Positions 1 through 60,683 of a stretch of DNA of 64,000 nt are shown one piece after another (within the stretch, counting starts at the first letter, position 1; each line of letters begins with the position of its first letter). A program made the position numbers and the translations under genes. Source of the DNA: a virus (lineage: Duplodnaviria > Caudoviricetes); IMG/VR virus record IMGVR_UViG_3300049988_000375, positions 1-64,000 of that record; one strand, 5' to 3'. A model generated the notes under the pieces. That model saw only the letters and a list, made by a program, of their open reading frames with translations, had not been told where the DNA came from and ran no database searches.

Positions 1-615
1 ATGAAAATTTCGCTGCCCGCCGAGCCTAGCTTGGTTGTAAAGCGCGGCAACAAGCGTATGTTGCCCGTCACGCCCCACGAAGTAAATGAGCTAATGACTT
101 GGGAAATCGAGTACCGATTTGTCCGTGAGGTCGAGCGGCTGGAACGGTCGGGGGTGGTGCCCAGCCGGGGTGAGTTGGAGCGCGTGGTGGGCCTGTTCCC
201 CGGTGACATTCGCGCCATTCGCGGCGGCATACGCGGAGTGGGCCTGGCTCAACTAGCGCTGCTGCACGAGAAGTACCGGGGCGACCGCGACTACATCCTG
301 CACGGCCGCCGCAACGAGGAGCTGAGTAAGCCCTACATTCCCGGCATCGGCAATATCGCCAAGTACGAGGGCTTCATCCACCAGTACAAGGCGCCCGCCC
401 GCTGGCGCTGCGGCCCCCGGCCCGAGCTGGTTTTCCCGCTGGTGCCCAGCGACCCCAACTCCGAGCGCAAGGCCTGGCACTACCCCGAAGACCCCGACAA
501 CAAGCAGTGGAAGCCCGGCCGCCTGCGCAATATCTCCGACCTGCAACGCGAGCAGCAGGAGCGCGAGGGCGCGGGTGCCGAACCAGAGACACCCACCACG
601 CAGGAAGAAGCCTAA
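1..615 (+). CDS. Hypothetical protein, possible HTH-type regulator
   Basis: 204 aa ORF with GC3-rich codons, followed by a hairpin; segment SRGELERVVGLFPGDIRAIRGG resembles a helix-turn-helix; true start may lie outside the window. Confidence 0.55.
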   Translation: MKISLPAEPSLVVKRGNKRMLPVTPHEVNELMTWEIEYRFVREVERLERSGVVPSRGELERVVGLFPGDIRAIRGGIRGVGLAQLALLHEKYRGDRDYILHGRRNEELSKPYIPGIGNIAKYEGFIHQYKAPARWRCGPRPELVFPLVPSDPNSERKAWHYPEDPDNKQWKPGRLRNISDLQREQQEREGAGAEPETPTTQEEA

Positions 616-620
616 GCAGA

Positions 621-651
621 AAGCCCCAACCGCAAACAGCAGTTGGGGCTT
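621..651. terminator. Intrinsic terminator between convergent genes
   Basis: aagccccaac (621-630) / gttggggctt (642-651) stem between + gene ending 615 and - gene ending 677. Confidence 0.75.
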
Positions 652-676
652 CGTTGTGGCGTTGCGGCGGGGTTAG

Positions 677-973
677 TTAATTCTTATTTGCTGACCGCAT
701 CCAAACGGACTCATACTCGCCGTTCTCGACTCGCTCAATCAACTCATCAAATTCCACTTCGCTGAGTTCTTTTAATTGCCGCGCATCGGGGTCTCGCAAG
801 TTTTTGCCCACCCAAAACACAGAATTAAACGTCGTTACCGTTAGCCCTACTCCGTTCTTTGGTTGAATCGAGTCCGGCTTTATCTCTTTTTCGCCGTGTG
901 TCTCATAGAAGGCCTTCTGAAGCCGCTTTACCTTGGCCCAAAAAATGTCGTGTGCAATCTGCTGGCTGCTCAT
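677..973 (-). CDS. Hypothetical early-region protein
   Basis: 98 aa ORF, last gene of the leftward operon. Confidence 0.6.
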   Translation of the reverse strand: MSSQQIAHDIFWAKVKRLQKAFYETHGEKEIKPDSIQPKNGVGLTVTTFNSVFWVGKNLRDPDARQLKELSEVEFDELIERVENGEYESVWMRSANKN

Positions 974-1008
974 ATTGGGGCTAGTGAAGCGGGGCTAGTT
1001 AAGAGTGT

Positions 1009-1254
1009 TTATGCGGATACTAAATCTGCCACGCATACGTCGGTGAAGGTGCATTTTATGCGCGTGGGGTCATATTCTTGCCCGAAATATAGTTCGGCCG
1101 TGCAGAACTCGTGGCCCATGTGCAAAATCTTACACCAGTAAAGGTCAATTTCCCCAACGGGGTCGTTCGACGGGAATCTGCTGGGAATTACCTGATACCA
1201 GCAGAGGCAAATGCTACCTATGGCGAAGGGCGGGGGTTCGGCTATCGTAAGCAT
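1009..1254 (-). CDS. Hypothetical protein
   Basis: ORF-track frame 1009..1323; ATG at 1254 sits just after the upstream stop at 1262. Confidence 0.45.
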   Translation of the reverse strand: MLTIAEPPPFAIGSICLCWYQVIPSRFPSNDPVGEIDLYWCKILHMGHEFCTAELYFGQEYDPTRIKCTFTDVCVADLVSA

Positions 1255-1261
1255 GGCGGGG

Positions 1262-1618
1262 CTATTTGGGCCATACTGCCTCGTGCTTGCAGTGCTTGCA
1301 TTTATACTCGTCACCATTGGCATATGTAGCTAGGTAGCGCAAGTCTTCACCCCCGCACTCCAAGCAATAAGGTTCTTCTTTTGGCTCGACAATGGCTATT
1401 TCGCGCAGCAACTCACTACTGGCATTGATTATGTTGGATTTAGCATTAATTAATTTAGTGACAAAATCAATTGCTGCGTGAAATCCGTCTTGGTAGGCTT
1501 GCTGCCTTTCAGATATACTTACTTCTTGTTCGTGAATGTTCGGGTAAGTCCTTGGGCGTTCTGCATCAAATTCCTCAGTGTAGCGAATTGACTCCAAGTC
1601 TAGTTCTTCGGTTGTCAT
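1262..1618 (-). CDS. Hypothetical protein with C-terminal Zn-ribbon
   Basis: CLEC...CKHC cysteine pairs at C-terminus. Confidence 0.65.
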   Translation of the reverse strand: MTTEELDLESIRYTEEFDAERPRTYPNIHEQEVSISERQQAYQDGFHAAIDFVTKLINAKSNIINASSELLREIAIVEPKEEPYCLECGGEDLRYLATYANGDEYKCKHCKHEAVWPK

Positions 1619-1630
1619 GGTTAGGCGGGG

Positions 1631-3271
1631 CTAGTTGGTGGGCTTAAGGCGATTAAGGCAATTCAAGTAGTGCTGCCACTTGGGCTCTTTGCGGTTGATG
1701 ATGGCGCGGCGAATGAGGTAGCGGGGCCACGGCTGGCTGCGCAGTAGGTCGTGGTGGGCACAGAACGCGGCCAAGCATGAGAAGTCGGCGCCTAGCTGCT
1801 CCATTGCCCCCGAGAAGGACAGCATGTCTGCGTCCCGCGCCCGGTAGCCCCACACCTTTTGCCGTAGTTCGTCAAAGACAATCGGCAGGTCAGGCAGCGT
1901 ATCGACGTGGGCGTAGTGTTGGCGGTAGCGCACGGCCAGATAAGGCTCCTTATCGGGCGGGTAAATCCAGGCTACAGCGGCCTTGCCGATTTGGTGTAGC
2001 AGCACGACCCGGCAGCCTTCGAGGCGGTATTGGGTGAACGGGAACTTCTTGACGGGCACAGCGGGGCTAGTAGATGCAGCCGGCAAGTTCGGGCTTACGT
2101 CGGCTAAGGCCAAGTCGGCAGCCTCGCACCACACTAGCGACTCGTTCCAATGGAAGGATTCGTGGCGCAGGTGGTGGGAAATGCGGGCGCGCAGTTCTTC
2201 GGGCTGACGTTCGGCTTCCACCAGCGCAGTGGCACACTCTACCAGTTCAGTGAGGGCAGCGGCTAGCTCGGGGCTGGGTGGGGTATTGTCGGCCATTGTG
2301 ACGCGGGCAGCGGGCTTTTGGGCGCGGGGTTTGCGCGGGGCCGGGGCTAGTTGCTCGGTGGGCATGGTGGCGGGGCTGAGCAGTAGGGCGTGGGCCGGGT
2401 TTGCATCATAGCCGAAGCCACCCTGCATGATGGGCATAACCAAAACTAACTTGGCGTGATTGTCGGAGTCGCGCAGCACCAGCGCCCGGTTGGGCGTGCT
2501 TAGTTCTAGCTGCACGCGCTTGCTGCCAGTAGCCAGCAGGCCCGTGATAGCCAGCAGCAGGTGCGAAGCATTGAAGAACGCAAACCAGTCCTCGCACACC
2601 TCGCGAAAATCAATGAAGGCGTGAATGCCTCGATAAATGTTCACAAAGCGCTCAGCTTTGCAAATGCCGGCTAGGCGATTGCGTAGCACCTCTAATTGCG
2701 CCACGTTCAACGTTACGGCGGGGTTAGTACGCCCAGCCAACGGAATCGCGTTCTCGTAGTCAGGATACCGCAAGTCGGACTTTTCAATGGGCGCAAATCC
2801 CTTGCCCATTACATCGCCTACGGCTAGTGCCGCGCCGGTTTTGGGATTTAGCAGCAAGTCAGCTTCGCCCACTTGGTCGGATGGCAATACAGCCAGCGAG
2901 TGCCCATTAGTGGCTACCACTGACTTGGTGCGCGCTTGATGATACACGCACATCATGGCGGCCCGCAATTTATTGGTGCTAGCAAACTGCTTTGCCACCT
3001 CGACGGGGCTAGTCTGCTTCACCTTGGGCGCCTTAATTGGCTGAATAACTAGCAGGCCTGTCACATCGTCACCATCAATACGGTCTTTTTTGAGCGGGGC
3101 TTTACCGGACAGGTCGCCGGCCAGTATGCGCGGGGCTAGTTCCTTCATTTCAGCATCTTGCGCGGCCGAATCATGTTCTTTGATAAACGCGCTGCGCTGG
3201 GTTAGTTTTTTGTAGCGCGCAAGCAGTTCGGCCGTGGTGGCGACAGTGGCGGGGCTAGTTTGGGTAGGCAT
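1631..3271 (-). CDS. Multidomain protein with partial DNA Pol III beta-clamp-like region
   Basis: VVATNGHSL, YPDYENAIP, FNASHLL and LVLVMPI match DnaN motifs VATDGHRL, FPDY, FNxxY and VVMP in order; unrelated C-terminal domain. Confidence 0.65.
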   Translation of the reverse strand: MPTQTSPATVATTAELLARYKKLTQRSAFIKEHDSAAQDAEMKELAPRILAGDLSGKAPLKKDRIDGDDVTGLLVIQPIKAPKVKQTSPVEVAKQFASTNKLRAAMMCVYHQARTKSVVATNGHSLAVLPSDQVGEADLLLNPKTGAALAVGDVMGKGFAPIEKSDLRYPDYENAIPLAGRTNPAVTLNVAQLEVLRNRLAGICKAERFVNIYRGIHAFIDFREVCEDWFAFFNASHLLLAITGLLATGSKRVQLELSTPNRALVLRDSDNHAKLVLVMPIMQGGFGYDANPAHALLLSPATMPTEQLAPAPRKPRAQKPAARVTMADNTPPSPELAAALTELVECATALVEAERQPEELRARISHHLRHESFHWNESLVWCEAADLALADVSPNLPAASTSPAVPVKKFPFTQYRLEGCRVVLLHQIGKAAVAWIYPPDKEPYLAVRYRQHYAHVDTLPDLPIVFDELRQKVWGYRARDADMLSFSGAMEQLGADFSCLAAFCAHHDLLRSQPWPRYLIRRAIINRKEPKWQHYLNCLNRLKPTN

Positions 3272-3374
3272 GGGGTGTCGCATTAACGGTGGCGAGCGCT
3301 GGGTTAAGGGTGAGGGATTGAGCCCGGCCCCGTCGTGAGCGGGGCAGCCTAGCGATATAGGGCGGGCAGATGTT

Positions 3375-3629
3375 CTAATCGAGGGGAAGGCTTGCGGCGG
3401 TGCCGACCTTTTTATACTGGCTTACAATAATTGCCACCCGCCCGCTACTCAGGTGAGTACACATGATTAATATTATGCTTTTATCCTCGCAAAGGAGTTG
3501 CTCCATTGCTATCGCGTCACGCCATCCCTGCGTTTCCTCGAATTGGATAGACACTTGATTCATGTCGTCACGCCTAGCAATTCGAAAGAGGTGGCTAATT
3601 AATTCATTGGCTTTTTTAGTAACTGACAT
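3375..3629 (-). CDS. Hypothetical protein
   Basis: 84 aa from ATG 3629 (MSVTKKANEL...). Confidence 0.5.
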   Translation of the reverse strand: MSVTKKANELISHLFRIARRDDMNQVSIQFEETQGWRDAIAMEQLLCEDKSIILIMCTHLSSGRVAIIVSQYKKVGTAASLPLD

Positions 3630-3685
3630 AACATCGCCCGTAACGTGGGCCAGCGTTGGAATAGGTGAGGTGAAAGGGGGGTTAG

Positions 3686-3976
3686 TTATTCGGCGGTGAC
3701 AATCAGAATGGGGCCGCACAGTTCTTCGCAGCCTAGCAGGGCGAAAGCAGTCCCTTCGGGGTTGGGCGCTAGGTCGTAGTCGGCGGCATTGGTAATACCC
3801 CACACGGCGCGGGTTTCGTCGGCAAATAGCAGGTCGTCGGGGCCGCCAAGTACCTCAGCAATCGCAGCCGTATTGTGGGCGATAAAGCCGGCCCGCAGCT
3901 TAATGCCTAATCTTCTCAGTTCCTCAGCGGGCAAGATGCGGGCGGGCTTATTCGGGTAGTAGACGGTGGCTTTCAT
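3686..3976 (-). CDS. DUF3846-like protein
   Basis: 96 aa; LAPNPEGTAFAL...LCGPILIV resembles the DUF3846 PN.AT...GP motif. Confidence 0.55.
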   Translation of the reverse strand: MKATVYYPNKPARILPAEELRRLGIKLRAGFIAHNTAAIAEVLGGPDDLLFADETRAVWGITNAADYDLAPNPEGTAFALLGCEELCGPILIVTAE

Positions 3977-4040
3977 CGGGAAATCAGTAGGTGGTGAGTG
4001 AGTGAAACGGGGCTAGTTGCTAGGCAATTCTTCTGCGCAA

Positions 4041-4177
4041 GGCCAGCGCGTGGGGTAGTGGGTGCATTGTGGAAAGAATGGGGTGTCAGGTTGGCCCGCT
4101 CTGTGTTTGTGCTGAGTTGCGACAGCTAGCCGGGGTTAGTGGCTACTCACATTAGGCGCGGGCGCAATGGCCCGCTA
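4041..4177. repeat. 137-bp direct repeat R-A, copy 1
   Basis: ggccagcgcgtggggtagtg...gcaatggcccgcta identical to 4591-4727. Confidence 0.97.
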
Positions 4178-4182
4178 AGGCG

Positions 4183-4569
4183 CTATTGCATTAGCGCGGC
4201 GTAGTCGAGCGAGGCGCAGAACTCGGCAGATTCGGCGTCAAATACCTCGGCCAGTTGGGCGCGGTGTTTGCTCACAATGGCAGCGGCTAGGCAGTAGGTT
4301 TGGGTGCTGTCTAGTAGCGACTCAATGCTGGGCATGGGTTGTTTGCCAGTGTAGAACTTACCTAGCCACGATAGGGCCAGCACCTCGGCGGCGGCGGCTG
4401 CACTCATGCCTGATTTGCCGGGGAAAGACTTGCGGTGAGTGCGTTCTTCGGCAAGCGTGGCCGCTAGTAGCTTCTCAATGGGGTTAGACCAGCCGTAAAA
4501 AGCACGGTCTAGGTTGCTGAAAATGGAGCGGGCAGTCTTAACGATTGCGGTGTTGTTTTGGGTAGTCAT
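4183..4569 (-). CDS. Hypothetical early protein (starts MTTQNNTA)
   Basis: ORF bounded by R-A copies; N-terminus encoded by repeat R-B. Confidence 0.7.
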   Translation of the reverse strand: MTTQNNTAIVKTARSIFSNLDRAFYGWSNPIEKLLAATLAEERTHRKSFPGKSGMSAAAAAEVLALSWLGKFYTGKQPMPSIESLLDSTQTYCLAAAIVSKHRAQLAEVFDAESAEFCASLDYAALMQ

Positions 4570-4598
4570 GGTATTAGTTGGCATTACCGGGGCCAGCG
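4547..4598. repeat. 52-bp direct repeat R-B, copy 1 (leader plus first codons)
   Basis: gcggtgttgttttgggtagtcatggtattagttggcattaccggggccagcg identical to 5337-5388. Confidence 0.97.
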
Positions 4599-4727
4599 CG
4601 TGGGGTAGTGGGTGCATTGTGGAAAGAATGGGGTGTCAGGTTGGCCCGCTCTGTGTTTGTGCTGAGTTGCGACAGCTAGCCGGGGTTAGTGGCTACTCAC
4701 ATTAGGCGCGGGCGCAATGGCCCGCTA
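4591..4727. repeat. 137-bp direct repeat R-A, copy 2
   Basis: Identical to 4041-4177; overlaps R-B copy 1 by 8 bp. Confidence 0.97.
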
Positions 4728-4732
4728 GGGGT

Positions 4733-5359
4733 TTATAGGTCGCGGCGCCGGCTTACATCGCTAACGCTAGTGGTGTATTCAGCCCCCACGCGCTCAGCAT
4801 AAGACCAAACAGCTTCTTGTGGCCGACCTTTGCCAAAGTCTAGCAAGCCGGGCAAAAACCCGAGACTTGCCAGTAAGGCGGTCATTTCGTGCTCATATTG
4901 GTTGCTGTAGCCATACCGAAAATCAATGCGGGCCACTACAACGCCGTTAACTTGGCCCACTGCTGAGAAGTAGGTATTGCCGTAAGTTTTATCAAACCAG
5001 CGCCGACCGCTAATGTGGATGGTTTGCGTGGGGCCAACCTGTGCGGGGCCGGGCATCCAAGTGGATTTAGCCATTGCCAGCGCCCGCTTGTATTGGGTTT
5101 GGTCATTAGAGGCCATCCAGCTATACACGAAGTCGGGGCCGGTCATGTCGTACTCAGCAGCCACGAGGGTAGTAGCCTGGTGCTCGATATAGCTAGCGCC
5201 GGGCAAGTCATACATCCGAACGCCTGTTACCGGGCACTTGCCCAAGTACTTAACGACGCATTCACCGTAGGTGCCAAATCCGAAATCCACCAGTTGGTCG
5301 GCGTTAATGCGGAAGTTGGGGATAGTGGCTGCTTTGGCGGTGTTGTTTTGGGTAGTCAT
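4733..5359 (-). CDS. Two-domain hypothetical early protein (starts MTTQNNTA)
   Basis: First gene after the 5442 promoter; C-terminal GRRWFDKTYGNTYFS...YGYSNQY segment looks like a phage early-gene domain. Confidence 0.75.
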   Translation of the reverse strand: MTTQNNTAKAATIPNFRINADQLVDFGFGTYGECVVKYLGKCPVTGVRMYDLPGASYIEHQATTLVAAEYDMTGPDFVYSWMASNDQTQYKRALAMAKSTWMPGPAQVGPTQTIHISGRRWFDKTYGNTYFSAVGQVNGVVVARIDFRYGYSNQYEHEMTALLASLGFLPGLLDFGKGRPQEAVWSYAERVGAEYTTSVSDVSRRRDL

Positions 5360-5388
5360 GGTATTAGTTGGCATTACCGGGGCCAGCG
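5337..5388. repeat. 52-bp direct repeat R-B, copy 2
   Basis: Identical to 4547-4598. Confidence 0.97.
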
Positions 5389-5434
5389 TGGGGTGAAGGT
5401 GAGCGGCTGTTTGTTTGTTGCCGTTGTTCTTGTA

Positions 5435-5465
5435 CAAATGTAGGGATGTTTACGGGAATAGCAAA
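5435..5465 (-). promoter_or_regulatory. Bacteroidota sigma-A promoter for the early operon
   Basis: Minus strand TTTG (5465-5462), 19 nt spacer, TACATTTG (5442-5435); several TTTGC repeats upstream. Confidence 0.8.
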
Positions 5466-5525
5466 CTAAAAGGCAAACAAAAAGCAAAATAAAAGCAAAT
5501 ACTTTCGTAACGCACTGATTAGCAA

Positions 5526-5930
5526 TCACAAAATATCCGCCTGTTTTTTGTCTTTTTGTCGCGTGTACTTGCGGGGCCACTTGGGAAAGTCATGCTTATC
5601 AACAGCACGGCGGGCTTTTCTTTCTGCGCGCACCAACGCAGCCAGCACCAAACGGCCGGCATCCGTCAGCCGCAGCGCCCACGAAATGCGGTCAGAGTAC
5701 ACGAGCCACCCCTTGCTAATCGCCTGGTTTATGCCGGCTAGCGTGGTATCATACGAGCAGCCCAAAAGCTTGCTAACAGCCGTTGAGCCAACCTTGTAGG
5801 TAGTCGCGTGGCCTATCTCTAACGCGCCCAGCACGCGCAGCGTACGCGGGCTTACGCCGTAGCTAGCCGCTACGCTATCCAGCACGTTAGCCCCTTGCAC
5901 CAGCGTTGCCAAGTAGTTTGGTTTATTCAT
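5526..5930 (-). CDS. Winged-helix (MarR-like) DNA-binding protein
   Basis: TLRVLGAL...STAVSKLLGCSYDTT...KGWL...LRLTDAG pattern. Confidence 0.7.
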   Translation of the reverse strand: MNKPNYLATLVQGANVLDSVAASYGVSPRTLRVLGALEIGHATTYKVGSTAVSKLLGCSYDTTLAGINQAISKGWLVYSDRISWALRLTDAGRLVLAALVRAERKARRAVDKHDFPKWPRKYTRQKDKKQADIL

Positions 5931-6475
5931 GCCGCGTCACGAAGCCAGTTTTCGTACTTCAGTTCTTCACCGTTCTCTATGCGCTTAATTACATAGCGAA
6001 CGGATAGCCGGTGAAGGTCGAGCGCCCGGCCAATAGCCGACTGGCTGTGCCCATCAGCGTGCAACTGCCGTATTTGCGCTATTTCTTCGCCGCGAATAAC
6101 GCGGGAGTCGCCCCTAGCCGTGCGCTTGCGCGGTGCGCGGTTCTCTAAGTTTTGGGCGGGCGTTACAATGCGCAAATTATCTGCTCGGTTGTCTGAGGGG
6201 CAGCGGTTTATGTGGTCTACCTGCCGGCCCTCTTCGTACTCTCCGTTGAGGCCTAGCCACACGGCGATATGCTCGTACACCATAATGCCCGGCCCCTTGC
6301 CCCGGCCCAAACTCATATCTAACTGCCGATAGCCGTTAGGCATAAGGTGCCCGGCAAGGGGTAGCCATTGGTCAGCAGCTTTGCGGTAAGACTCTATTCT
6401 GCCCTCTGCCCCATTGACGCGATACTTGCCCCCGGCGAAGCATTGCAGAACTCTTTGTTGTTTGTCTTTTGTCAT
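5927..6475 (-). CDS. HNH endonuclease with C-terminal HTH
   Basis: EHIAVW...VDHINRCPSDNRADNLRIVTPAQN HNH_3 motif; IRQLHADGHSQSAIGRAL HTH. Confidence 0.9.
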   Translation of the reverse strand: MTKDKQQRVLQCFAGGKYRVNGAEGRIESYRKAADQWLPLAGHLMPNGYRQLDMSLGRGKGPGIMVYEHIAVWLGLNGEYEEGRQVDHINRCPSDNRADNLRIVTPAQNLENRAPRKRTARGDSRVIRGEEIAQIRQLHADGHSQSAIGRALDLHRLSVRYVIKRIENGEELKYENWLRDAA

Positions 6476-6478
6476 AGC

Positions 6479-6510
6479 CAAATCTACTAAACAGAAGGCA
6501 AATAAGCAAA
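6479..6510 (-). promoter_or_regulatory. Sigma-A promoter, near-leaderless, for the HNH gene
   Basis: TTTG (6510-6507), 20 nt, TAGATTTG (6486-6479). Confidence 0.75.
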
Positions 6511-7293
6511 CTATTTAGCAAACTAACTAAGCCCGGCAAACAAGTCCGCTGGGTGGGGTGATTACATAGAGTGAGGAGAGAGAAGAAGAAGGAGCTAGGC
6601 CAAGTAGTCATGCACAGCCACAGCACCCGCAGCTTATCCAATCGGCAAGGGCCTTGCCCCGCTGGTGGGGGAGGAGAGGGGCAAGGCATTGCCCATTATA
6701 CCTTATGCCTGTTAAGGAAACATATTGTATGTTATAAGACATTGCCCTTCACCCACTTGCAGCACTTCACGGCCACAGGTTTCGGGCTAAATCGGCCTCG
6801 TATGGGGTGGCATTCGGGCTAGGGGTACCGGGTTTGGGGGTTTCACTTGCCCATTGGGGGTGGGGGATGGGAATACCCCCGGTAGGCCATTTACCACACC
6901 CTGACAACCGATTTTCGGGCCAGAACACCCCGGTTTTGAGCCTTGATAGCCCGGTTTTAGGGCCGGATTCGAGCTGATACTGGCTGCTGGATGCCAAAAA
7001 CGGGCTGAAAAGAGGCAAAAAGACCGTGTTTTGAGGGAGCCCGAAGGGCAAAAAGGCGCCCTGCGCCGGCACCCAATTCGTTCAAGTTGGTTTTGGCGGA
7101 TTTCGTTGGCGATTTGCTATGTTTAGCTGGGGGCTGCTAGTGGTAGTGAGTAAGCAGTAAAAAAGACGTGTATTAGATAATAAGAGGGGCGTAGAAGTAC
7201 GTTGCCAGTCAGTGGGTTAATGGGTTCGTCTTGCGTGGCTGTGTAGTCGGCTATTGATAGCCAAGTGTTGTTTGCCAAAATAAATTTGTTTTA

Positions 7294-7325
7294 TTTGGTA
7301 AAATTTGCTTTTTGTTGTAGATTTG
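7294..7325 (+). promoter_or_regulatory. Sigma-A promoter, near-leaderless, for the RepL-like gene
   Basis: TTTG (7294-7297), 20 nt, TAGATTTG (7318-7325); ATG at 7330. Confidence 0.8.
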
Positions 7326-7329
7326 CTCA

Positions 7330-7767
7330 ATGGCTAGTCAAAACCAAATCAGGGAAACCGTGGACCACACGACGGGGGAAACCCTGCGGAGTGAGCGCGT
7401 TTACACGGCCCGCTACAAGTCCGAGCCGTTCGTGAGCATGTCCTTGCCCGCGTCCGAACTGCTGCACAGCCTCACTTCGATGAAGGACATGCGGGTGCTG
7501 CTGGCCCTCGCGGAGCTGGCTGAGTTCAATACCAACGCCATCTTTCTAATCGCCTCGCGCCGGCAGCAGGTGATGGCACGCGCCAGCGTCTCCACCGCCC
7601 AGCTCAGCGTTGCACTGCGCCGGCTGCGCGAGGCGGGCATCCTGTCCGGCTCGAAGGGCGAGGCTATCATTCACCCTGGCGTACTCTGGAAGGGCAACTC
7701 GGCTGTGCGCCGCGAAAAGCTGGCCGAGTTAGCGAGGCAAGTAAAATCTAACTTTGAAAACGAATAA
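7330..7767 (+). CDS. RepL-like winged-helix replication/maintenance protein
   Basis: VDHTTGE N-terminus; QLSVALRRLREAGIL HTH; IIHPGVLWKG matches the RepL-type NP..FWKG. Confidence 0.7.
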   Translation: MASQNQIRETVDHTTGETLRSERVYTARYKSEPFVSMSLPASELLHSLTSMKDMRVLLALAELAEFNTNAIFLIASRRQQVMARASVSTAQLSVALRRLREAGILSGSKGEAIIHPGVLWKGNSAVRREKLAELARQVKSNFENE

Positions 7768-7797
7768 TCAACCCCCACCCTAAAAAGCTAATTCGTC

Positions 7798-8269
7798 ATG
7801 GCAGATAACATCGATATTCTACAGTTGCCTGCTGGCCGGGAGCTGGATGACATTATTGCTGAATCATTTTTTGGGTATATCCGAGTTTGGCTGCAACTGC
7901 GGGCAGAAAGGGCGCCTGAAAACATGCTTATTCAAGCCAAGGATTTAGGCTTCTATTGCAGCTATTTCCATGCAGCAGAAGGGTGGCATGAGAAGGGGGG
8001 GGCGTCGGCAAGGGGGCATCGCGGCCTACTCCACTGATATAGCAGCCGCATGGCAGCTTGTAGATGCCCTTGCTGCCACTCACGCGTTGCGCCTGACCTA
8101 TGGCATTTGGCGAGAGAATGGGGAGAAGCAGGTGGGTTGGCGCGCTGACTTCGGGCCGTTCGGGGCCTCTTCTAAAACCTGCGAAACCGCACCGCACGCC
8201 GTGTGCCTGGCTGCCCTGCTAGCCACCCTTCCCGAATCGGCCACCCTAGAGAACCAGCCCGCATCGTGA
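7798..8269 (+). pseudogene. Phage ABA-sandwich (BC1872-like) gene split by a frameshift at G8
   Basis: GRELDDIIAE in frame 1 and YSTDIAAAWQLV...TAPHAVCLAAL in frame 2; deleting one G from 7995-8002 joins them. Confidence 0.75.
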
Positions 8270-8475
8270 GCCGCCAGCCTATTACCGTAGTGCCCGACTG
8301 CCCGCGCCTACTCCCTATAAAGCGCGGAGACACAGTCTTTCACACCCTCTCAGAACGCGAGTTCAGGTGCATGGATGCCAAGCAAGAGCGGTGGATGAAT
8401 ATGAACCCTTGCTACAGGCTGCTATTCAAGTCGAAATCAGCGGCCCCCACTACAGAAAAAACGCCCACCCCATGA
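8266..8475 (+). CDS. Hypothetical protein
   Basis: GTG start overlapping the upstream TGA. Confidence 0.45.
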   Translation: MSRQPITVVPDCPRLLPIKRGDTVFHTLSEREFRCMDAKQERWMNMNPCYRLLFKSKSAAPTTEKTPTP

Positions 8476-14788: not shown

Positions 14789-15543
14789 TGGCTAACGCAC
14801 CCCAATACGCGCACCAACTCCGCTACCGGGTTCAGGACTTGAATCCGGGCGAGACGGTACTGGAAAAGTTTTCCGACCTCGCGGTGCATGAGACGCTGGT
14901 GACGCACGGGTTCGGGCCTGACAAAGACCCGTTCCTGCGCTACTGCATCTACCTGAGTGAAGGCAGCGGCCTGCACGCGGCTATACCCGAGTGGGCTGAC
15001 CGCAAGAAAGAAGCCCTGCGCCTAGCTGGCGTGAATCCCGCGCACCCGCGCTACCAACTGGTGCTTGAAATGAAGGATGAGCCTGTGCAGGAAATGCGCT
15101 GGGCTTGGCTCAAGGCATTCAACTCGCGCAAGTTTCGGGCTTACGTAGCTGGTTGCGAGGCATTCGACCAGAATTGCCAAAAGGTAGAAGCGCCAATTGT
15201 TGACAATATGGGCAGCCTGCCAAAGCTAGAGATAATCTTCTATGTGGATGGCAAAGAGAAGCCGAAAGAAGCCCAAGAGCGCACTAATGAGACGTTGGAC
15301 CAAATAGCAAACATTATCGCCAGCACTAAACGCGACTTAAAAGCTGATGCTGAGCAGCGTGCATATAGCTTGCGCAACGAGTTATTTGAGGGATTGCCAT
15401 TGCAGGATGCCATGCTTGCCAAGATGGAGTCTGAGCTATTTATGGGCGATGATGAGTTGAAGCGATTGGCTACTGAGCGTGCTAAGCCACGAGCTGAGGG
15501 CGGCAGTATCGAGGCCAAGATTATGAACCGCAAGCAGAGGTAG
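14788..15543 (+). CDS. Hypothetical protein upstream of TerL
   Basis: 251 aa, TAATG-coupled; packaging role inferred from position only. Confidence 0.65.
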   Translation: MANAPQYAHQLRYRVQDLNPGETVLEKFSDLAVHETLVTHGFGPDKDPFLRYCIYLSEGSGLHAAIPEWADRKKEALRLAGVNPAHPRYQLVLEMKDEPVQEMRWAWLKAFNSRKFRAYVAGCEAFDQNCQKVEAPIVDNMGSLPKLEIIFYVDGKEKPKEAQERTNETLDQIANIIASTKRDLKADAEQRAYSLRNELFEGLPLQDAMLAKMESELFMGDDELKRLATERAKPRAEGGSIEAKIMNRKQR

Positions 15544-15545
15544 CC

Positions 15546-15734
15546 ATGAATTTACTGGGGCCTGATAAGCTAGTACACATTGCCCACCCGGTGGCTTTGT
15601 CGGGTTTAGATACGCTATGCGGCCACATGGCAGGGAATACTATCCGGGAGGCCAATAAGCCCGCCGACTGCCCTGAGTGCTTAGAAGTGGTGCGTTTTTG
15701 CAAGAAAATTAGGGTAAAGGGAGTTTGGAAGTAA
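15546..15734 (+). CDS. Small Cys/His hypothetical protein
   Basis: 62 aa; H...LCG...CPEC. Confidence 0.5.
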   Translation: MNLLGPDKLVHIAHPVALSGLDTLCGHMAGNTIREANKPADCPECLEVVRFCKKIRVKGVWK

Positions 15735-17782
15735 CACTGCTCAAAGACGGTCGGCAAAAAGCGTTCATTGGCGAAATGGACTGCTTTAGCCCTGTCGTGC
15801 CAAAGCGCAAAGAAGATTTCATTAACGGCCACGTCGCCAAGCGCAAAGACCAGAAGTGGCAGCGCGACTACCCGACTGAGGCCGAAATTGACCAACTGAG
15901 CGAGTCCGAACGTGACGCACTGCAAGACCGCGAGCTGGACCGCCGCGAAAACGGGTGCTGGTTTCTCAATGACGGGGAGCCCACCTACCTGACGGGTGAC
16001 AACTACTTCTACCTCACGCACTTCAAGCTGCCAACCGGCATCTACCCCGAGTTTCGGGACGCTGACCAGAAATTCTACTGGTGGTGGAAGGCGATTGAGG
16101 ACGACCCGAATTGCATTGGCGGCATCTTCCTTGGCGCCCGTCAGCGGGGCAAAACCGCCCGCGCCGCTGCCCTGCTGCTGAACTACGCCAGCCTAAACCC
16201 CAACGTGTGGTGCGGCATCACGTCCAAAAAGAAAGAGGACGCTAAAGACGTGTTCCAGCTATTCGTTGTGACTGGCTGGCAGAATATGAGTAGCCTGATT
16301 CGCCCAAAAGCGCCGGCAGGTGATAGCCCTAAGTCGGAGCTGCTGTTTGCCGCTGAGGCCCGCAAGGGTAGGGCAGCGCAGGGAGCGCGACAGTGGGCGC
16401 TAAACTCGAAGATTGACTACCGCGACTCGAAAGAGAACGCCTACGACTCCAAGACCCTCAGCCGCAAGTTCACCGACGAGCCGTTCAAGGAACAACTCTA
16501 CAACTCGGAGGAACGCCGCAAAATCGAGTCGCGCATGATGTGGCGCGGAGGCAAAGCCATTGCCAAAATGTTGATGGCTTCGACTGTTGACGAGCAGGAG
16601 GGCTTCGACCCCGCCATTGCCGAGAATATGTGGGGCGAGGCGAACCCCAATGAGCTGACGGCTACTGGCCGCACGAAGAACGGCCTCAAGCGGCTGATGA
16701 TGCCGTCCACCGAGGCGCATAAAATTGACGACTACGGGCGCAGCCTACTGGATGAGTCGCTGTTTGACATTGAGGCGAACGCGCCGGAAGACCCGGTTGC
16801 CCGCCGCAGCTACTTCCGCGCTAACCCGCGCCACGAGGCCGATGCGTTCAGCACCGGGGGCAAGGGCAGCATCTTCAACCTCGAAAACCTCGACGCGGCC
16901 AAGCTGCGGGTGGCGAACCTGGCTAAGCCCGAGTGGCGGCAGGTGGATTTGCAGTGGACGGACTTAGCCACCAAGGACACGGTGAAAACCGTGGACAACG
17001 ACGTTAACGGCCGCTTCAAAATCATCATGCAGGCCCTGCCGCTGGTGCAGAACAACGTGCAAGCCTCGGGCACCCACCTGTCCGACTTAGGCGAAATGAC
17101 GCGCTACCGCCCGCTGAATAGCGCCCTGTACGCTATCGGCTGCGACCCCTACGATGCGCGCAGCGTAGCCGACCCCAAGGCAGCATCGAAGGGTGCGGCA
17201 TATGTATTCTGGAAGCCTGACATGCTGCACGAAGCCGATAGATTCGATACGGCGGGCCGCGAGAAGCCGGACTATTGGCCCTCTGATGGGTTTATTGTGG
17301 AGTACGTGAACCGTCCGCCACGGCCGAAGGATTTCTACGAGGATATGCTAAAGCTGGCGCACCTCTTTGGTTGTAGTATCTTGCCAGAGAATAACAAGCC
17401 GGGCATCATTGCCCACTTTGAGGATAGGGGCTATGGTGATTTCGTGTCGGGTAAAATCGACATTATCGCCAGCAAAGACCAGAAGAACAAAAAGAAAGGC
17501 AAGGAAACGCCCGGCCACGCCGCCTCGGTGGATGCGACCAACCAGTGGAGCGAGCGCCTGGCCGAGTTCACCCACGGCCCGCTAGGCGACGACCCGCGCC
17601 GGATGCCCTTCGCCCACCAGATTAAAGATGTTGCCCAGCTTGACATTCTCGACACCAAGAAATACGACGCAGCCGTGGCCTCGGGCTGGACGCTGCTACT
17701 AGCCCGCCGCTTCGTAAAGCCCAAGGCCAAATCCGTGCCCGCCAACCTCACCGACATTCGCAGCTTCTTTAACGTACTGTAA
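15725..17782 (+). CDS. terL: Terminase large subunit, crAss-like type
   Basis: GARQRGKT Walker A, FTDEP Walker B, IGCDPYD and PENNKPG nuclease motifs, terminal KYDAAVASG; TTG start uncertain. Confidence 0.92.
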   Translation: MEVTLLKDGRQKAFIGEMDCFSPVVPKRKEDFINGHVAKRKDQKWQRDYPTEAEIDQLSESERDALQDRELDRRENGCWFLNDGEPTYLTGDNYFYLTHFKLPTGIYPEFRDADQKFYWWWKAIEDDPNCIGGIFLGARQRGKTARAAALLLNYASLNPNVWCGITSKKKEDAKDVFQLFVVTGWQNMSSLIRPKAPAGDSPKSELLFAAEARKGRAAQGARQWALNSKIDYRDSKENAYDSKTLSRKFTDEPFKEQLYNSEERRKIESRMMWRGGKAIAKMLMASTVDEQEGFDPAIAENMWGEANPNELTATGRTKNGLKRLMMPSTEAHKIDDYGRSLLDESLFDIEANAPEDPVARRSYFRANPRHEADAFSTGGKGSIFNLENLDAAKLRVANLAKPEWRQVDLQWTDLATKDTVKTVDNDVNGRFKIIMQALPLVQNNVQASGTHLSDLGEMTRYRPLNSALYAIGCDPYDARSVADPKAASKGAAYVFWKPDMLHEADRFDTAGREKPDYWPSDGFIVEYVNRPPRPKDFYEDMLKLAHLFGCSILPENNKPGIIAHFEDRGYGDFVSGKIDIIASKDQKNKKKGKETPGHAASVDATNQWSERLAEFTHGPLGDDPRRMPFAHQIKDVAQLDILDTKKYDAAVASGWTLLLARRFVKPKAKSVPANLTDIRSFFNVL

Positions 17783-33941: not shown

Positions 33942-34214
33942 ATGGGACAGCTTTACCACGGCCACCGCATCTACATTGACGAGGACGACCGCGAGGTTAT
34001 CCGGCCCGTTTCCTTTCTGTGGGATAACGTGCTGGACCTCGGCGGCAGCAAGGGCGTCGGGCTGAACTTCAAGAACAGGGAGCCCAAGACCTACGTAACC
34101 TTTCCCAACAGCCGGGGCATGTGGATTCTGGCCCCCATTAGCAAAATGCGCCACCTGTGGAGCGCCTACCTCGGTGACGAGGTAGAACTAGATTTTTCCA
34201 TCAACCTCAACTAA
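33942..34214 (+). CDS. Hypothetical protein
   Basis: 90 aa, coupled. Confidence 0.65.
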   Translation: MGQLYHGHRIYIDEDDREVIRPVSFLWDNVLDLGGSKGVGLNFKNREPKTYVTFPNSRGMWILAPISKMRHLWSAYLGDEVELDFSINLN

Positions 34215-34223
34215 CCCCGCTTT

Positions 34224-42269: not shown

Positions 42270-44048
42270 ATGCCCACCATTCCAGGCGAGAATCTTGTTA
42301 CCAACGGCCCCAGAACCGGAGCCGCTTACGTGCTCGGGCGCACCACGCCGGATGCGCTCTCCATTCTCATGCAGGGCCAGCGGCAGCGTGATTACGCCGC
42401 CCGTCAGCAGGCTATTGCCAAGCAGAAGGCCGACGAGCTGGCCGCCAAAGACCTGAACGACAAGCTAAAGTACGAGGTGGACGGCAGCCACATATTCGGG
42501 GATACCCTGCAAAATCAGGTGTATAATCCATTGAACGATAAACTGGTGGGCGCCTTCAAGGCCAACCCAACCGACGCGTTCGCCCGCACCGCCGCCACCC
42601 GCCCACTGCTCGAAGGGGCGCAGAGCGAAACCCAGCAGAGCAAGCGGAAAACAGCCTTCATTGATGAGAATATCCGCAAGTTCCAATCGGATAGCAAGCT
42701 CTACAACCCCAAGTACGCCACCGAGAGCCTGGTAAAGAGCCTGCGCGACGAGGCTACCGGCCTAAACCGCCTGCCCTCGCAGTTCGATGAGGAAGCGTGG
42801 CTGGGTGCGTTGCAGGGCGATGCGGGCCTCTACAACGAGCCGGAGGTGATTCGCCGGGCCACGTCGGGGCTGCTGCCCACGGTGTCGCAGAAAATCAGCG
42901 AGGCGGGCACTATCGGCGGGCAGCACAGCTCGGACCTGGTGCGCGGCAAGCTCATTGCCATGCAGAACGGCAAGCCTATTCTCAACGCCGATGGCAGCCC
43001 GAAGCTCAACCTCGGCGCCGACCTGCAAGGGCTGCTCGAAGCCGACCCGCTGTTTAAACTCAAGGTCGATGCCCGCGAGGCGGCTTACAACGCCAAGCGC
43101 GAAGCCGACCCTACCCTGCCGCAGGTGAGCCGGCGCGGCCACATCGCGCAGATGGTCGGCCCCCTCGCGTTTTACGACACCGCTCACGACGAGGGCTTGA
43201 ACCGCCTGCCCCCGCAACCTAAAAGTGCCGGCAAGGAGAAAGGCTTTGTGCCCGACGATGGCTCACTGGTGGAGGGCGACTACTCGGCTACGCTGCCCGC
43301 CACCGCCCCCGCCTACGCGGGCCTGCGCGACGACAAGGGTACCCCGGTTGGCTACGACTTCTCGCAGGCTGCCGGCCCCCAAAAGACGTTTCAGCATCTA
43401 GGCCAGGGCAAGCAGCCTATCCTGAAAACGGCCAGTGGCGACTTGAAAGAGAAGCACACTGACGCTATCAAAATCAACAGCTACTACACGGAGGATGGCA
43501 AGGGCAATTTCTCGGAGGTGACCAACAACGTCACCCCGCAGGCGGGCGTGTTCGGTCCCTCGACGGTGGTAGCGGTGGATGTGAAAACGAATAAACCACT
43601 GTTCAGTAAGTCGCGGGAGGAACAGAAGCAGCTTATTGCCAGCGGAGCCGCCCGCCCGCAGCTATTCATCGACCTGGCCGCCGACAAGAACGAGAAGTTC
43701 GCCGCCGACAAGTCGCGGGTGCTGCGTGAACTGACCCAGGCCAATAACGACCCCGGCAACTTCAATAAGAAATCGCCGGCCGAATTGGAGGACCAGGCGA
43801 CCAAGATTGTGAGCAAGGGTGTCACCCGCCACTTCATCCCCTACAACGCGCAGAACGCGCAGGCTATCGACCCCGTGACGGGCGGCCACTACCGCGCTGC
43901 CCTGAAAACGATGCTGCGCAGCTTCAAGCAGGGTGCCGCGCCCGCCCCCAAGGCGAAGGCCAACCCCCTCGGCTTCGGCGCGCCCGCCGCCAGCAAACCC
44001 TCGACCGCCCCCGCCGCTAAACCCAAAGCCAACCCACTTGGATTCTAA
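42270..44048 (+). CDS. Internal virion/cargo protein
   Basis: 592 aa helical protein before a giant ORF; TATCTTGC box at 42243. Confidence 0.6.
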   Translation: MPTIPGENLVTNGPRTGAAYVLGRTTPDALSILMQGQRQRDYAARQQAIAKQKADELAAKDLNDKLKYEVDGSHIFGDTLQNQVYNPLNDKLVGAFKANPTDAFARTAATRPLLEGAQSETQQSKRKTAFIDENIRKFQSDSKLYNPKYATESLVKSLRDEATGLNRLPSQFDEEAWLGALQGDAGLYNEPEVIRRATSGLLPTVSQKISEAGTIGGQHSSDLVRGKLIAMQNGKPILNADGSPKLNLGADLQGLLEADPLFKLKVDAREAAYNAKREADPTLPQVSRRGHIAQMVGPLAFYDTAHDEGLNRLPPQPKSAGKEKGFVPDDGSLVEGDYSATLPATAPAYAGLRDDKGTPVGYDFSQAAGPQKTFQHLGQGKQPILKTASGDLKEKHTDAIKINSYYTEDGKGNFSEVTNNVTPQAGVFGPSTVVAVDVKTNKPLFSKSREEQKQLIASGAARPQLFIDLAADKNEKFAADKSRVLRELTQANNDPGNFNKKSPAELEDQATKIVSKGVTRHFIPYNAQNAQAIDPVTGGHYRAALKTMLRSFKQGAAPAPKAKANPLGFGAPAASKPSTAPAAKPKANPLGF

Positions 44049-50000: not shown

Positions 50001-50007
50001 GGAATAG
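44038..50007 (+). CDS. Giant internal virion/ejection protein (~1990 aa)
   Basis: Frame open from 43933; TTG 44038 is a plausible start; Ala-rich helical; no RNAP catalytic motif seen. Confidence 0.7.
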   Translation: MDSNAQPTEELAPEQTAPTPPTSRLQTAYGLLKKQDVKVPDSYEEFERGMVDKPERLKALYDHFKKSDIQVPDDYGQFEAGMLEGVKKKAHSAPGGLPSAATAPTSSPAVSGQGTNPAQMQAALGIDPADVAQPAPEPTPDVAMAAEAAGLESAQPFAPGSAAAPLAQNLPNLATGEAAVQGGRLPATEEMDYLNGLPAAEDKGVRPDGSEYTPTPYGKELVAIPNDYTGAVPAGAFPLNLSGEGDRTQYFYRDKAKTVDGKEQSYGDALKGKLKNALYSMGQGVVEGTQAAVNTVGMASTAASGLPLAAAPRTELGTEASAAIERNKTKIAPYYNQSFRQHKNWETLGMTAADYAPMVIAQVAQTLAPELRAPAALQKALAFASTTAFDADMYHAAREHAKQVFPNDPAKADLYTLFEGTLTVAGFKVGSKLMTEVGDKLAYKLSPFSLKRAVATGAAERLSQLEAQLGRRATDAEYQQVLHESLRAALPKLAQLPKESFQQAGTFGGVAAAQTIGNQIVAPALGGQADDLGPDGMGFFSKVGEGMLAGAGMGALTGAVGAVLPAGTRPAPAQEPIAGEPELAPTPEAPAELTPSQEVPTAEVAPPTAPDPSVVDVTDQVPEPIQAVAPEEALPITEPVASEQVPESALAEPEGGQGNTVEAGPELGQKERQHPLRYDEQTQAGLRPEERYYTPRARIQNAEEANAFIDEHGLENAYKFVMAGERDTAAGEPIHAAVLDEVRGQTRQRLLDASLAADKVGDTAESTRLLQQSLDVLGKRAIARTETAQALAQVEGDITKNPDKALDDYAASIPATKEKVRKQNRQKAQAADKEATTKRKAKVDAALADADVQDAAERVTEWAVTGQKPAKKGGAKPAESTPADPPTWGSKNKLFTKESAAKAKAALKNLGLSTIIPPELIHFMGYHMEAGARSFADVSKRVVRDLGAKVKPLLKEAYEAAKKELVAKGDSGKGFDGPDAVEAALRASLADDLAGRIVSEVKPKVPGVFDPAQELLETLTKKVRETLPPNKPKPKDAREAIVHALQNKAEYADVFEQSKAEVEARIEKMSATDAEKAKMREQLRAYQADTIGDPFAARQVDATMRQAMKELGLKLEKLVRQHADVREAGRRSLVDALVEGAGLTPAQAAEYAEAVSNRYAVQTQAKAQSLAGRILAPAKAKLPGGKIRSVVDKLTEALDISDATHTGPDSDTVSPAGALLEKMAGIPEVTVEDVKAFRKLAERVRKASQPKGVTIKGKQVQVIDTKAQQAAVADLLRYGAAKMGKVNWWAKTRAMQYAFRLSGLDTQGRNLKANVLHTVAEQGLITPLYNAIKNRSVYGASGGATGYAKGQGQGVAEAAYTIKTGYTGEKQDKFGDNSPLETMGGFWGKWKYVSRAMIAGDQLTSIPTENSRTFEVAVQKGFELAREKAAASGQKLKGRALRDAAWAEANEILYNTKEALADIDYILEQEGLPEITAAQVRAGQHTVGEYNQRAVQRNVRKADLLRQARAAENPDLVKDAQDYARIQTLNGDVPGQIGRVLDAAASIGRDNPVADAVLTNVMPFLKIPANSLLRKLEWGGGPVTLLKAALGRTSLTMAVKEGSKYSRELTPDERGKLALRGALSTVAWAGLYGLIHNGTISISGPASGKNDEDLLQPPMTIKIGDSVYGYKDTNIEYPLVIAAALQAHLRKKTKQGGDPSLAQLASVAALHSAAYMVTTGPINGPADMGNVLIQANQGNYASAGNYFKRFLVTSAKTGTLPAVLIQGMQAARDYTATYKEWASAGQQSTDWQGAAVRERKSNSLADELKVSFFGSIPYFDIGEDKINFAGQPIVINRSGETIWQDEQTKRLAQTLVALGLMPPRQAPTDDKLVLFDPVSGDRVTPLSDAEFKQYAVLRGQAFVEYLTRQPEGEGGKTLLSQIKEAPTRAIAERLRDKALDAATTNALRTIEQQRGGGVTFKLSKQLKQASDAAGFQQAKQQLDEKLATE

Positions 50008-60478: not shown

Positions 60479-60683
60479 CCCATGCTACCCCTACGCGAAA
60501 CGTGGCCCCGCCTGCTCTTGTTCTGCTTAGCGGCGGCCCTGGCCTATTGGGGCACTCGTTTGCTGCCCGCCTCTTTTCTGCCCTAGCTGCCCGCCGCTCC
60601 CATGCGCCCCCCGAAAAAGACCCCGCCCACCGTGGCCCGGCTCACGCCGGATGAACAGATAGCTAACCCCCTTTTTCTGCACT

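Follow-up and report, generated by a model that had tools for sequence, protein, structure and literature searches.

A one-way word repeated through a single accessory operon of a temperate phage and of at least eight related elements

In Cluster A mycobacteriophages, the immunity repressor binds the stoperators as a monomer, and in phage L5 one type of site serves both as stoperator and as operator. Chi-type words, which RecC/AddB recognizes and which attenuate the nuclease, are over-represented in the chromosome of their own host. In phage T4, RegB targets GGAG in early mRNAs, and the late promoters are a bare 8-bp box. The primary-sigma promoter of Bacteroidota is composed of a -33 TTTG and a -7 TAnnTTTG; to our knowledge, next to nothing is known of phage regulation in hosts of the Bacteroidota type. 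Stoperators occupy short intergenic spaces and are oriented according to the direction of transcription (PMC9283540).

In this study, we analyzed the first 64,000 nt (the window) of the 81,353-bp Caudoviricetes record IMGVR_UViG_3300049988_000375, in the early region of which the 10-mer CGGGGYTAGT had been noticed on the plus strand. Our counts reproduced that observation exactly: 12 copies lie on this strand, all within 668-4690, starting at 668, 990, 1626, 2062, 2342, 2719, 3004, 3131, 3250, 4008, 4131 and 4681, with near matches at 976 and 3677 and a single copy in the rest of the window (minus strand, 34210). Dinucleotide shuffles gave a chance expectation of 0.21 copies (largest 2). No further copy was found in bases 64001-81353 of the record, and 14 of the 16 nine-mer copies in the whole 81 kb fall in 668-4690. 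Because the local genes (677-7072) are on the minus strand, the plus-strand word is antisense to them, and their sense strand carries ACTARCCCCG. The preliminary description had implied a sense word by proposing an mRNA version, ACUARCCCCG, and that part stands, but the plus-strand word itself is not the sense form. The sense-strand copies and their neighboring features are as follows.

4681..4690, minus strand: array copy 1, ACTAACCCCG, intergenic, in repeat R-A, stop codon 42 nt before
4131..4140, minus strand: array copy 2, ACTAACCCCG, intergenic, in the second R-A repeat
4008..4017, minus strand: array copy 3, ACTAGCCCCG, ATG at 3976 comes 31 nt after
3677..3686, minus strand: array copy 4, variant ACTAACCCCC, overlaps the stop codon of a 96-aa gene
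3250..3259, minus strand: array copy 5, coding, frame 0 (T-S-P), residue 5 of the 546-aa gene
3131..3140, minus strand: array copy 6, coding in the 546-aa gene, frame 2 (L-A-P)
3004..3013, minus strand: array copy 7, coding in the 546-aa gene, frame 0 (T-S-P)
2719..2728, minus strand: array copy 8, coding in the 546-aa gene, frame 0 (T-N-P)
2342..2351, minus strand: array copy 9, coding in the 546-aa gene, frame 2 (L-A-P), interdomain linker
2062..2071, minus strand: array copy 10, coding (T-S-P), linker directly before the C-terminal domain, in-frame GTG 2 nt downstream
1626..1635, minus strand: array copy 11, supplies the TAG stop of the 546-aa gene, next ATG 7 nt downstream
990..999, minus strand: array copy 12, intergenic, stop codon 9 nt before
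976..985, minus strand: near copy, ACTAGCCCCA, ATG at 973 comes 2 nt after
668..677, minus strand: array copy 13, the last, overlaps the stop of the unit's final gene and points at the 3' end of convergent gene 1-615
34210..34219, plus strand: isolated copy on the sense strand of the virion operon, its TAA ends ORF 33942-34214, next ATG 4 nt downstream
5435..5442, minus strand: -7 box of Bacteroidota type, TACATTTG, likely (putative) promoter of the array-bearing unit
1631..3271, minus strand: 546-aa two-domain gene (P0001/P0002), six internal copies
1..615, plus strand: p204, convergent 204-aa gene between attP and the array end, weak XRE-type helix-turn-helix (HTH) signals

Copies 4131 and 4681 sit, as had been reported, within the direct repeats R-A (140 nt; 4041-4180 and 4591-4730), and no copy lies from 7072 to 4690. 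The 1631-3271 ORF contains six copies in two frames, also in agreement with the first reading, while the copy at 1626 is a seventh that forms its TAG stop. The word spells each of the six T[SN]P and L[AT]P tripeptides in this 546-aa gene. The proposal that amino-acid constraint is inadequate to explain these copies held up against a codon-aware background, in which the excess remained: against the six in-ORF copies, 3000 synonymous-codon shuffles gave 0.47 on average (max 4), and codon permutations gave 0.03. CGGGGYTAGT is an oriented signal, and the word is a real and selected one at the nucleic-acid level.

The word is shared by this temperate phage and at least eight relatives, in one accessory operon each; the family is one of temperate phages whose host is of the Bacteroidota type. 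In at least eight further elements, the homologous operon carries a one-way array of 3 to 15 copies, on the sense strand only. The sense:antisense counts were 13:0 in the window, in L009 and in L016, 15:0 in L020 and 8:0 in L021, with smaller arrays in L024, L034, L036 and L037; six arrays pooled gave 65 sense and 0 antisense copies, and all the larger arrays were far above shuffles. Loss of the enrichment under a codon-aware background and absence of the clustering from relatives had been named in advance as grounds against the signal, and neither arose, since the relatives keep the clustering and the codon-aware enrichment holds. The relatives define a fuller, asymmetric element of about 18 nt, a-ACTA-N-H-CCCG-C-c-n-Y-r-a-Y, which is broader than CGGGGYTAGT. 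Its two middle bases differ between phages, G occurs at the second of them in 0 of 65 copies, and ACTA, CCCG and the flanks at -1, +10, +13 and +16 are conserved, a pattern that fits an asymmetric protein footprint; the element logo has no dyad symmetry. In G184 the array is built from a variant word, ACCAACCC, which is without the TA-nn-CCCG layout. Scattered copies outside the arrays, which also lie on local sense strands, are about as frequent as a rough composition-based chance estimate.

Confined to a single transcription unit directed at attP, the array does not lie at a demonstrated genome end. Its copies are spaced more evenly than at random (mean 334-401 bp, pooled P=0.0004). Thirty-five of the 65 copies are outside coding sequence and 30 inside, and 23 of those 35 overlap a stop codon or follow one by at most 18 nt. 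The word is associated with stop codons rather than starts; small genes have copies at or just past their stop codons. Many copies stand 6-55 nt before start codons, five of them just 2 nt before, and in three of five arrays the final copy faces a convergent gene alone. The promoter regions contain no copy, the first one lying 390-1400 nt downstream of the -7 box, and no Shine-Dalgarno sequence was found upstream of any gene. Within the long gene, copies recur every 120-640 bp. The homologous long genes of the window phage and L009 have six internal copies each, at largely different residues. Copies thus turn over in position while their density stays, and density is what is selected.

A loading site for a phage protein and a motif on the mRNA, both raised in the preliminary description, are the two leading readings. 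By analogy with stoperators, we tentatively favor the former, at somewhat less than an even chance: the array may be a set of polar sites at which a phage protein docks to act on the transcription of one unit. The operon is an accessory one, pointing at attP and probably driven by a host promoter, with copies about every 350 bp on its sense strand. One sequence-specific phage-encoded protein would dock at these copies and act polarly on RNA polymerase crossing the unit, and the operon might thereby be shut down, in the lysogen or at the early-to-late switch. Like the Cluster A stoperators read by L5 gp71 and the TipsytheTRex repressor (PMC9283540, PMC6550527), the array comprises many short asymmetric sites whose orientation follows transcription, as in all 65 pooled copies; copies outside coding sequence tend to lie at gene ends, and the word is phage-specific, with no enrichment in the host genome. 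In contrast to stoperators, which are spread over the whole genome, the array covers a single operon, has about half of its copies evenly spaced in coding sequence, and has none at the promoter, whereas an L5 site doubles as the operator at the early lytic promoter. The word here also differs in having 8 fixed bases in a 4+2+4 layout, and the host is of Bacteroidota type rather than one of the Actinobacteria, with a reader that is a candidate only.

The best candidate for this reader would be p204, the convergent neighbor, which may have an XRE-type HTH; it is a weak candidate. A p204 homologue accompanies 8 of 8 ACTANHCCCG array loci with enough sequence, as well as G184, and each phage examined has a separate -7 promoter for p204. 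Its top profile and structure matches are all weak and all XRE-type HTH (Stl/Orf20, E 0.12; C.BclI; Atlas HTH_3/CI clusters). Pfam gave no match for p204, hhalign gave none between p204 and the S24 repressor of the phage, and its AlphaFold2 model reached a pLDDT of 48. Three genomes have good p204 homologues and no array, and because the elements share ancestry, the co-occurrence of p204 with the array is confounded.

An RNA signal would equally be expected to take the form of a strictly sense-strand word, which counts against the docking reading. On the RNA side, the reader of ACUANHCCCG on the operon mRNA would be a sequence-specific endoribonuclease or an RNA-binding protein, of phage or host, that would cut or mark the polycistronic message behind every cistron and at intervals of a few hundred nucleotides; the decay or processing of the early or accessory message might thereby be timed, as by T4 RegB with GGAG. 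We consider this rather unlikely, even though the copies all share the sense strand of a single transcription unit, many of them directly past stop codons where RNA is ribosome-free, and the even spacing would suit a need to reach the whole transcript. The scattered copies on local sense strands point the same way, but C-rich sense strands can explain that bias. The element is G-poor, and its predicted accessibility equals that of other C-rich stretches, being no better than in matched C-rich controls. Rfam gave no match, and cutting within the long ORF would destroy its own message. Pfam and PHROGs scans of about 50 ORFs, most of them without any match, recognized no nuclease or RNA-binding domain and no RegB-like endoribonuclease. 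RegB sites resemble the array in being short sense-strand words concentrated in the mRNAs of small early genes, frequently in the gaps between cistrons; however, they coincide with Shine-Dalgarno sequences, which the genes here lack, and the present word is much longer and is kept inside ORFs too.

The layout of the core, a -7 box TAnnTTTG with CCC for TTT, raises the alternative that TAnHCCCG is a variant -7 box for RNA polymerase with a phage-encoded or phage-modified specificity factor, so that each small gene and the internal domains would get promoters of their own, comparable to the bare-box late promoters of T4. All copies point with the genes, many precede start codons at 6-55 nt, and there is a weak Y-R-A preference 4-6 nt past the G, where a start site would lie. 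Nevertheless, we regard this as improbable. There is no -33-like or other upstream conservation (all positions from -50 to -2 stay at or below 0.17 bits), the stretch to be melted is GC-rich (CCCGCC), and no sigma-like gene was found among the phage ORFs in Pfam/PHROGs scans. The five copies 2 nt from a start codon are too near to serve it, three of the five arrays have a final copy that faces only the convergent gene, about six copies lie within one ORF, and the G184 array departs from the required layout. An ordinary Bacteroidota primary-sigma promoter was rejected, with the core being TAnHCCCG instead of TAnnTTTG and the -33 TTTG about 20 nt upstream missing.

It had also been suggested that the word is a Chi-like signal on first-expressed or first-injected DNA. 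On a reading of this kind, oriented sites would shield first-entering DNA from RecBCD/AddAB or guide a translocase. Strict polarity, multiple copies and the anti-restriction gene ArdA in the L016 operon are in line with this, and Chi sites are likewise polar words (5-8 nt) acting in one orientation. We searched six genomes (4.5-5.9 Mb) of the bacterial family that carries these prophages, the host family being deduced from that carriage, against a reversed-word control. The generalized word was at or below control frequency in 6 of 6 (53-195 vs 128-305 copies): ACTANNCCCG had 195 copies vs 305 in G001, and ACTANHCCCG had 53-176 vs 128-209 in the five further genomes, three of which carry arrays. 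Because the word is not enriched there, unlike Chi in its host chromosome, the Chi reading is unsupported. Furthermore, the array begins only past the promoter and stops with the transcription unit, which ties it to transcription and not to a DNA end; packaging from near the terminase genes (15.7 kb) would probably put the nearest end 9-13 kb off; and the middle bases, in G184 even the whole word, vary among phages of one host family. We therefore hold an entry signal to be extremely improbable.

Finally, the word could be a seam for recombinational swapping of small accessory genes, its in-gene copies being non-regulatory fusion scars. A copy follows each small gene, the gene at 4183-4617 is bounded by the word-bearing 140-nt repeats, the word stays while operon gene content varies between phages, and the phage has an Erf annealing protein. 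The N-domain of the 546-aa gene is found also in giant multi-domain proteins and its C-domain (~140 aa) also as a stand-alone gene; the C-domain is bracketed by copies whether fused or free-standing, with a copy at or near the site of array copy 10 in 5 of 5 fused or stand-alone relatives examined. Against this, the copies at residues 87 and 182 are within a single conserved domain, and in-ORF copies were gained independently through codon choice: one L009 copy spells the L-N-P of a conserved LLLNP, and the same peptide is wordless in the window phage. Even spacing and conserved flanks indicate selection on the word itself, and 10 bp is short for annealing-based exchange. Overall, a seam appears very improbable. 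T4-type PeSL cassettes and integron attC sites share a repeated one-way element beside each small gene in a variable region, but around the word there is no conserved hairpin and no promoter-plus-terminator structure, and the word lies also within a long ORF. An integron attC site as such was rejected, for the word has no surrounding dyad and lacks hairpin-forming imperfect inverted repeats.

It is possible, although somewhat doubtful, that such arrays are a general and undescribed layer of phage gene control that extends over whole operons. A short one-strand word would recur at intervals of a few hundred bases along an early or anti-defence operon, coding sequence included, and a reader dedicated to it would turn the entire unit off or on. 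The words would be lineage-specific (ACTANHCCCG here, ACCAACCC in G184, with GTCCGATAA as an unchecked lead). If one factor reads the word, it would offer a handle on the silencing or timing of accessory, probably anti-defence, genes in temperate phages of Bacteroidota-type hosts. It would also show that coding sequence can be made to carry regulatory sites at a set density. Being short, portable and polar, the element could be used as a genetic part.

The replication origin is elsewhere than the word array. Replication-origin iterons were rejected as an identity for the array, whose individual spacings of 21-983 bp are not the tandem helical spacing in or beside an initiator gene. A separate array, 5.9 copies of a 22-bp unit, lies at 72319-72453 of the record, within a wHTH gene.

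The word CGGGGYTAGT occurs 12 times on the plus strand of the window, each copy where the preliminary description had placed it across 668-4690, and once on the minus strand, at 34210, whereas shuffled sequences predicted 0.21 copies. The near matches reported at 976 and 3677 were recovered as well, and so were the six copies within the long gene (the 546-aa two-domain gene at 1631-3271, minus strand), with a seventh forming its TAG stop codon. The claim that amino-acid constraint does not explain these copies stood up to a codon-aware background, under which the enrichment persisted: synonymous-codon shuffles of the long gene gave a mean of 0.47 (maximum 4 in 3000) and codon permutation gave 0.03, against the six observed. 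These two procedures rule out an amino-acid or codon artefact. In addition, all T[SN]P and L[AT]P tripeptides of the 546-aa protein (6 of 6) were spelled by the full word including its flanking base.

The source record is a provirus of 81,353 bp, of which the window represents bases 1-64000, and the remaining 17 kb held no further copy of CGGGGYTAGT. Reading frames, GC skew and AT skew all placed the genes from approximately 7072 down to 677 on the minus strand, and the sense-strand word is therefore ACTARCCCCG. Its 9-mer core, ACTARCCCC, was found in 14 minus-strand copies, all within 668-4690, and in two plus-strand copies, both on the local sense strand. The word also occurs singly, as whole or partial copies, at gene junctions of the virion operon:

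34210-34219, plus strand: the TAA of the word serves as a stop codon, with an ATG 4 nt further on
60663-60671, plus strand: at a gene junction; CTAACCCCC lies in the gap ahead of the gene at 60684

The 546-aa protein had one close homologue, P0003, with 50% identity on contig L009. Homologues of both of its domains were collected by exhaustive profile search, and their contigs and genomes supplied more loci with the same gene order, in which copies were counted with the word relaxed to ACTA-NN-CCC[G/C].

Copies of the relaxed word on the sense and antisense strands of the window array and of related loci
Window array: 13 sense, 0 antisense
L009: 13 sense, 0 antisense
L016: 13 sense, 0 antisense
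L020: 15 sense, 0 antisense
L021: 8 sense, 0 antisense
L024 (1.2 kb): 3 sense, 0 antisense
L034: 4 sense, 0 antisense
L036: 8 sense, 0 antisense
L037: 4 sense, 0 antisense

Dinucleotide shuffles of the array loci yielded at most 2-3 copies. The clustering was thus kept in the eight related loci listed, while the word was absent from the loci of more distant homologues. A blastn search of window 1-8000 against the phage collection gave no match, and scans of viral, metagenome and genome contigs with the full 546-aa protein or its C-domain as query yielded no relative; one viral scan gave distant relatives alone, at 26-30% identity, and all of these lacked the word. The middle two bases varied by phage, being RC in the window phage and L021 and AA, GA, TA or CT in L020, and the second of them was G in none of 65 copies. 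A logo of 81 sites showed conservation from -1 to +16 (a-ACTA-N-H-CCCG-C-c-n-Y-r-a-Y), with no conservation upstream to -50 and no hairpins or conserved flanks beyond -1 to +16. As read from the sequence, a TAGCC/GGCTA stem surrounds the word in the two copies of a direct repeat only. This repeat and its neighborhood comprise the following features:

4041-4180 and 4591-4730: 140-nt direct repeat, 99-100% identical, flanking the gene at 4183-4617 and containing a GCGGGC/GCCCGC hairpin and one word copy in the TAGCC/GGCTA stem
4569 and 5359: starts of two genes with leader and first residues (MTTQNNTA) in common
5927-6481, minus strand: HNH endonuclease with C-terminal HTH, an insertion in the upstream portion of the leftward arm

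An HNH gene also stands at the far end of the array operon of L020. Only two of five phages have an HNH gene within the operon or next to it, and the reading of the word as a set of HNH nickase sites was rejected on this ground.

The array is confined to one transcription unit starting at a -7 box at 5442 (TACATTTG), and no copy lies between 7072 and 4690. The large terminase and portal of the window phage are distant kin (27% identity) of those of Flavobacterium and Cellulophaga podophages, none of its genes has a Shine-Dalgarno sequence, and its promoters carry TAnnTTTG boxes; these properties point to a host of Bacteroidota type. Comparison with relatives, where the integrase and S24 repressor adjoin the homologue of p204 (the 204-aa gene at 1-615, plus strand), shows that attP is where the provirus record has been cut:

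about 79.1-80.0 kb of the record: S24 repressor, right end of the record
80034-81329 of the record: integrase, right end of the record
window 1-615, L025 (right part of the same record) 15072-17353 and locus L010 4071-4245: record ends, from comparison with relatives

The order is thus the operon, p204 converging on it, attP, then integrase and repressor. Just upstream of p204, beyond the left edge of the window, there are arm-type repeats GAACAACA, a CTGCGATTGTCTG box and a -7 box TACATTTG. The replication origin is placed outside the word array, by an origin-like array of 5.9 copies of a 22-bp unit at 72.3 kb, inside a winged-helix gene (record 72319-72453, L025 8319-8453), and the reading of the word array as origin iterons was therefore rejected. 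Beside it are genes for a phage DnaN-like clamp (L025 8839-10014) and an Erf annealing protein (L025 11832-12449).

The preliminary description had proposed, among other signals, a Chi-like site, and the host chromosomes spoke against it. Six genomes from the bacterial family carrying these prophages had the word at or below the frequency of its reversed control; a host word of Chi or KOPS type is thus unsupported and was rejected on these counts. The genomes have approximately one copy in every 30-90 kb vs one per ~350 bp in the operon, and in one of them (G005) eight of 53 copies fell within a single 3-kb array. We regard a Chi-like or entry signal as highly improbable.

Placement was tallied for 65 copies. 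Fourteen overlapped a stop codon, ten of them supplying it by the word's own TAA or TAG; 21 were intergenic, nine within 18 nt after a stop; and 30 lay in coding sequence, most of them in the long gene. The C-terminal domain was in every case closely preceded by a copy, either in the linker of the fused form (followed after 2 nt by an in-frame GTG in the window phage and L009) or shortly before the start codon of a separate gene (2 nt in L024), and in most loci a second copy was at or near the stop of this domain. Copies at such boundaries might mark a recombination seam between gene cassettes, a reading to which we give little credence. Between the window phage and L009 the residues occupied by the other copies in the long gene differ, but their number is equal, six each; density is thus conserved and position is not. 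Moreover, spacing was more even than under random placement, and each of the five larger arrays had a mean within 334-401 bp (pooled P = 0.0004).

On these facts, the reader should tell the two strands apart, act along one whole transcription unit and depend on site density. We tentatively prefer the reading that the copies are polar protein docking sites, which would block or modulate RNA polymerase. The closest analogue is the stoperator system of Cluster A mycobacteriophages. There, more than 20 asymmetric 13-mers are bound by a monomeric repressor; they are oriented with transcription, and their function depends on this orientation (PMC9283540). Unlike stoperators, the word array has no copy at a promoter, is restricted to one operon, and has half of its copies in coding sequence. 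An mRNA signal for cleavage or binding is a possible, somewhat less probable alternative; the word was no more open in RNA accessibility than matched C-rich 10-mers and matched no known RNA family in Rfam, and neither result separates the readings. A variant -7-type promoter box is suggested by the similarity of TAnHCCCG to TAnnTTTG, and we consider it unlikely. We class the array with the oriented regulatory site arrays of temperate phages, a known kind, while giving an appreciable chance to a distinct mechanism; our literature search found no paper mentioning the word.

The proteins common to the array loci were the C-domain, p204, the integrase, the S24 repressor and a 145-aa protein, with no others. 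We regard the C-domain as an unlikely reader, since it is found in a conjugative element that has no array and is absent from the genome G184, which has one. Its AlphaFold2 model (pLDDT 94) had no clear PDB match. We consider p204 a better but still weak candidate, as a lead rather than a finding. Each of the eight ACTANHCCCG array loci with sufficient sequence had a p204 homologue, and in every phage examined p204 had its own -7 promoter. In G184 a homologue with 37% identity sits within a different polar array, of 16 minus-strand copies of ACCAACCC. Good homologues also occurred without any array, in other contexts, in three genomes. The best profile and structure matches of p204 were all XRE-type HTH proteins, at weak scores (E 0.12-0.46; TM 0.32-0.38), and these mutually consistent hints weakly suggest an XRE-type protein. 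Pfam gave no match for p204, its AlphaFold2 model was poor, and hhalign against the phage's own S24 repressor gave nothing.

Several further features were observed in these proteins and loci:

L050 (G184:C16) 2163-8323, minus strand: the different polar word, (w)TA-ACCAACCC-(C/G), 16 on one strand vs 1 on the other, surrounding the p204 homologue, with several copies at stop/start junctions of small genes
546-aa protein, about residues 45-290: N-domain with a DnaN-like 'ATNGHSLAV' stretch, which turns up again within giant proteins (1000-5000 aa)
C-domain (about 140 aa): found, besides the fused form, as a free-standing gene both in prophages and in the conjugative element L022, where it lies beside relaxase and coupling protein
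L022 99-441, conjugative element of GCA_900188255.1: dense one-strand cluster of AAGTAGTAA / GTCGTAAAG repeats beside a ParA gene, which may be a centromere or oriT region
43933-50007, plus strand: 2024-aa virion-module reading frame, whose sole match is a weak one to a DarB-like antirestriction PHROG (residues 767-1075)
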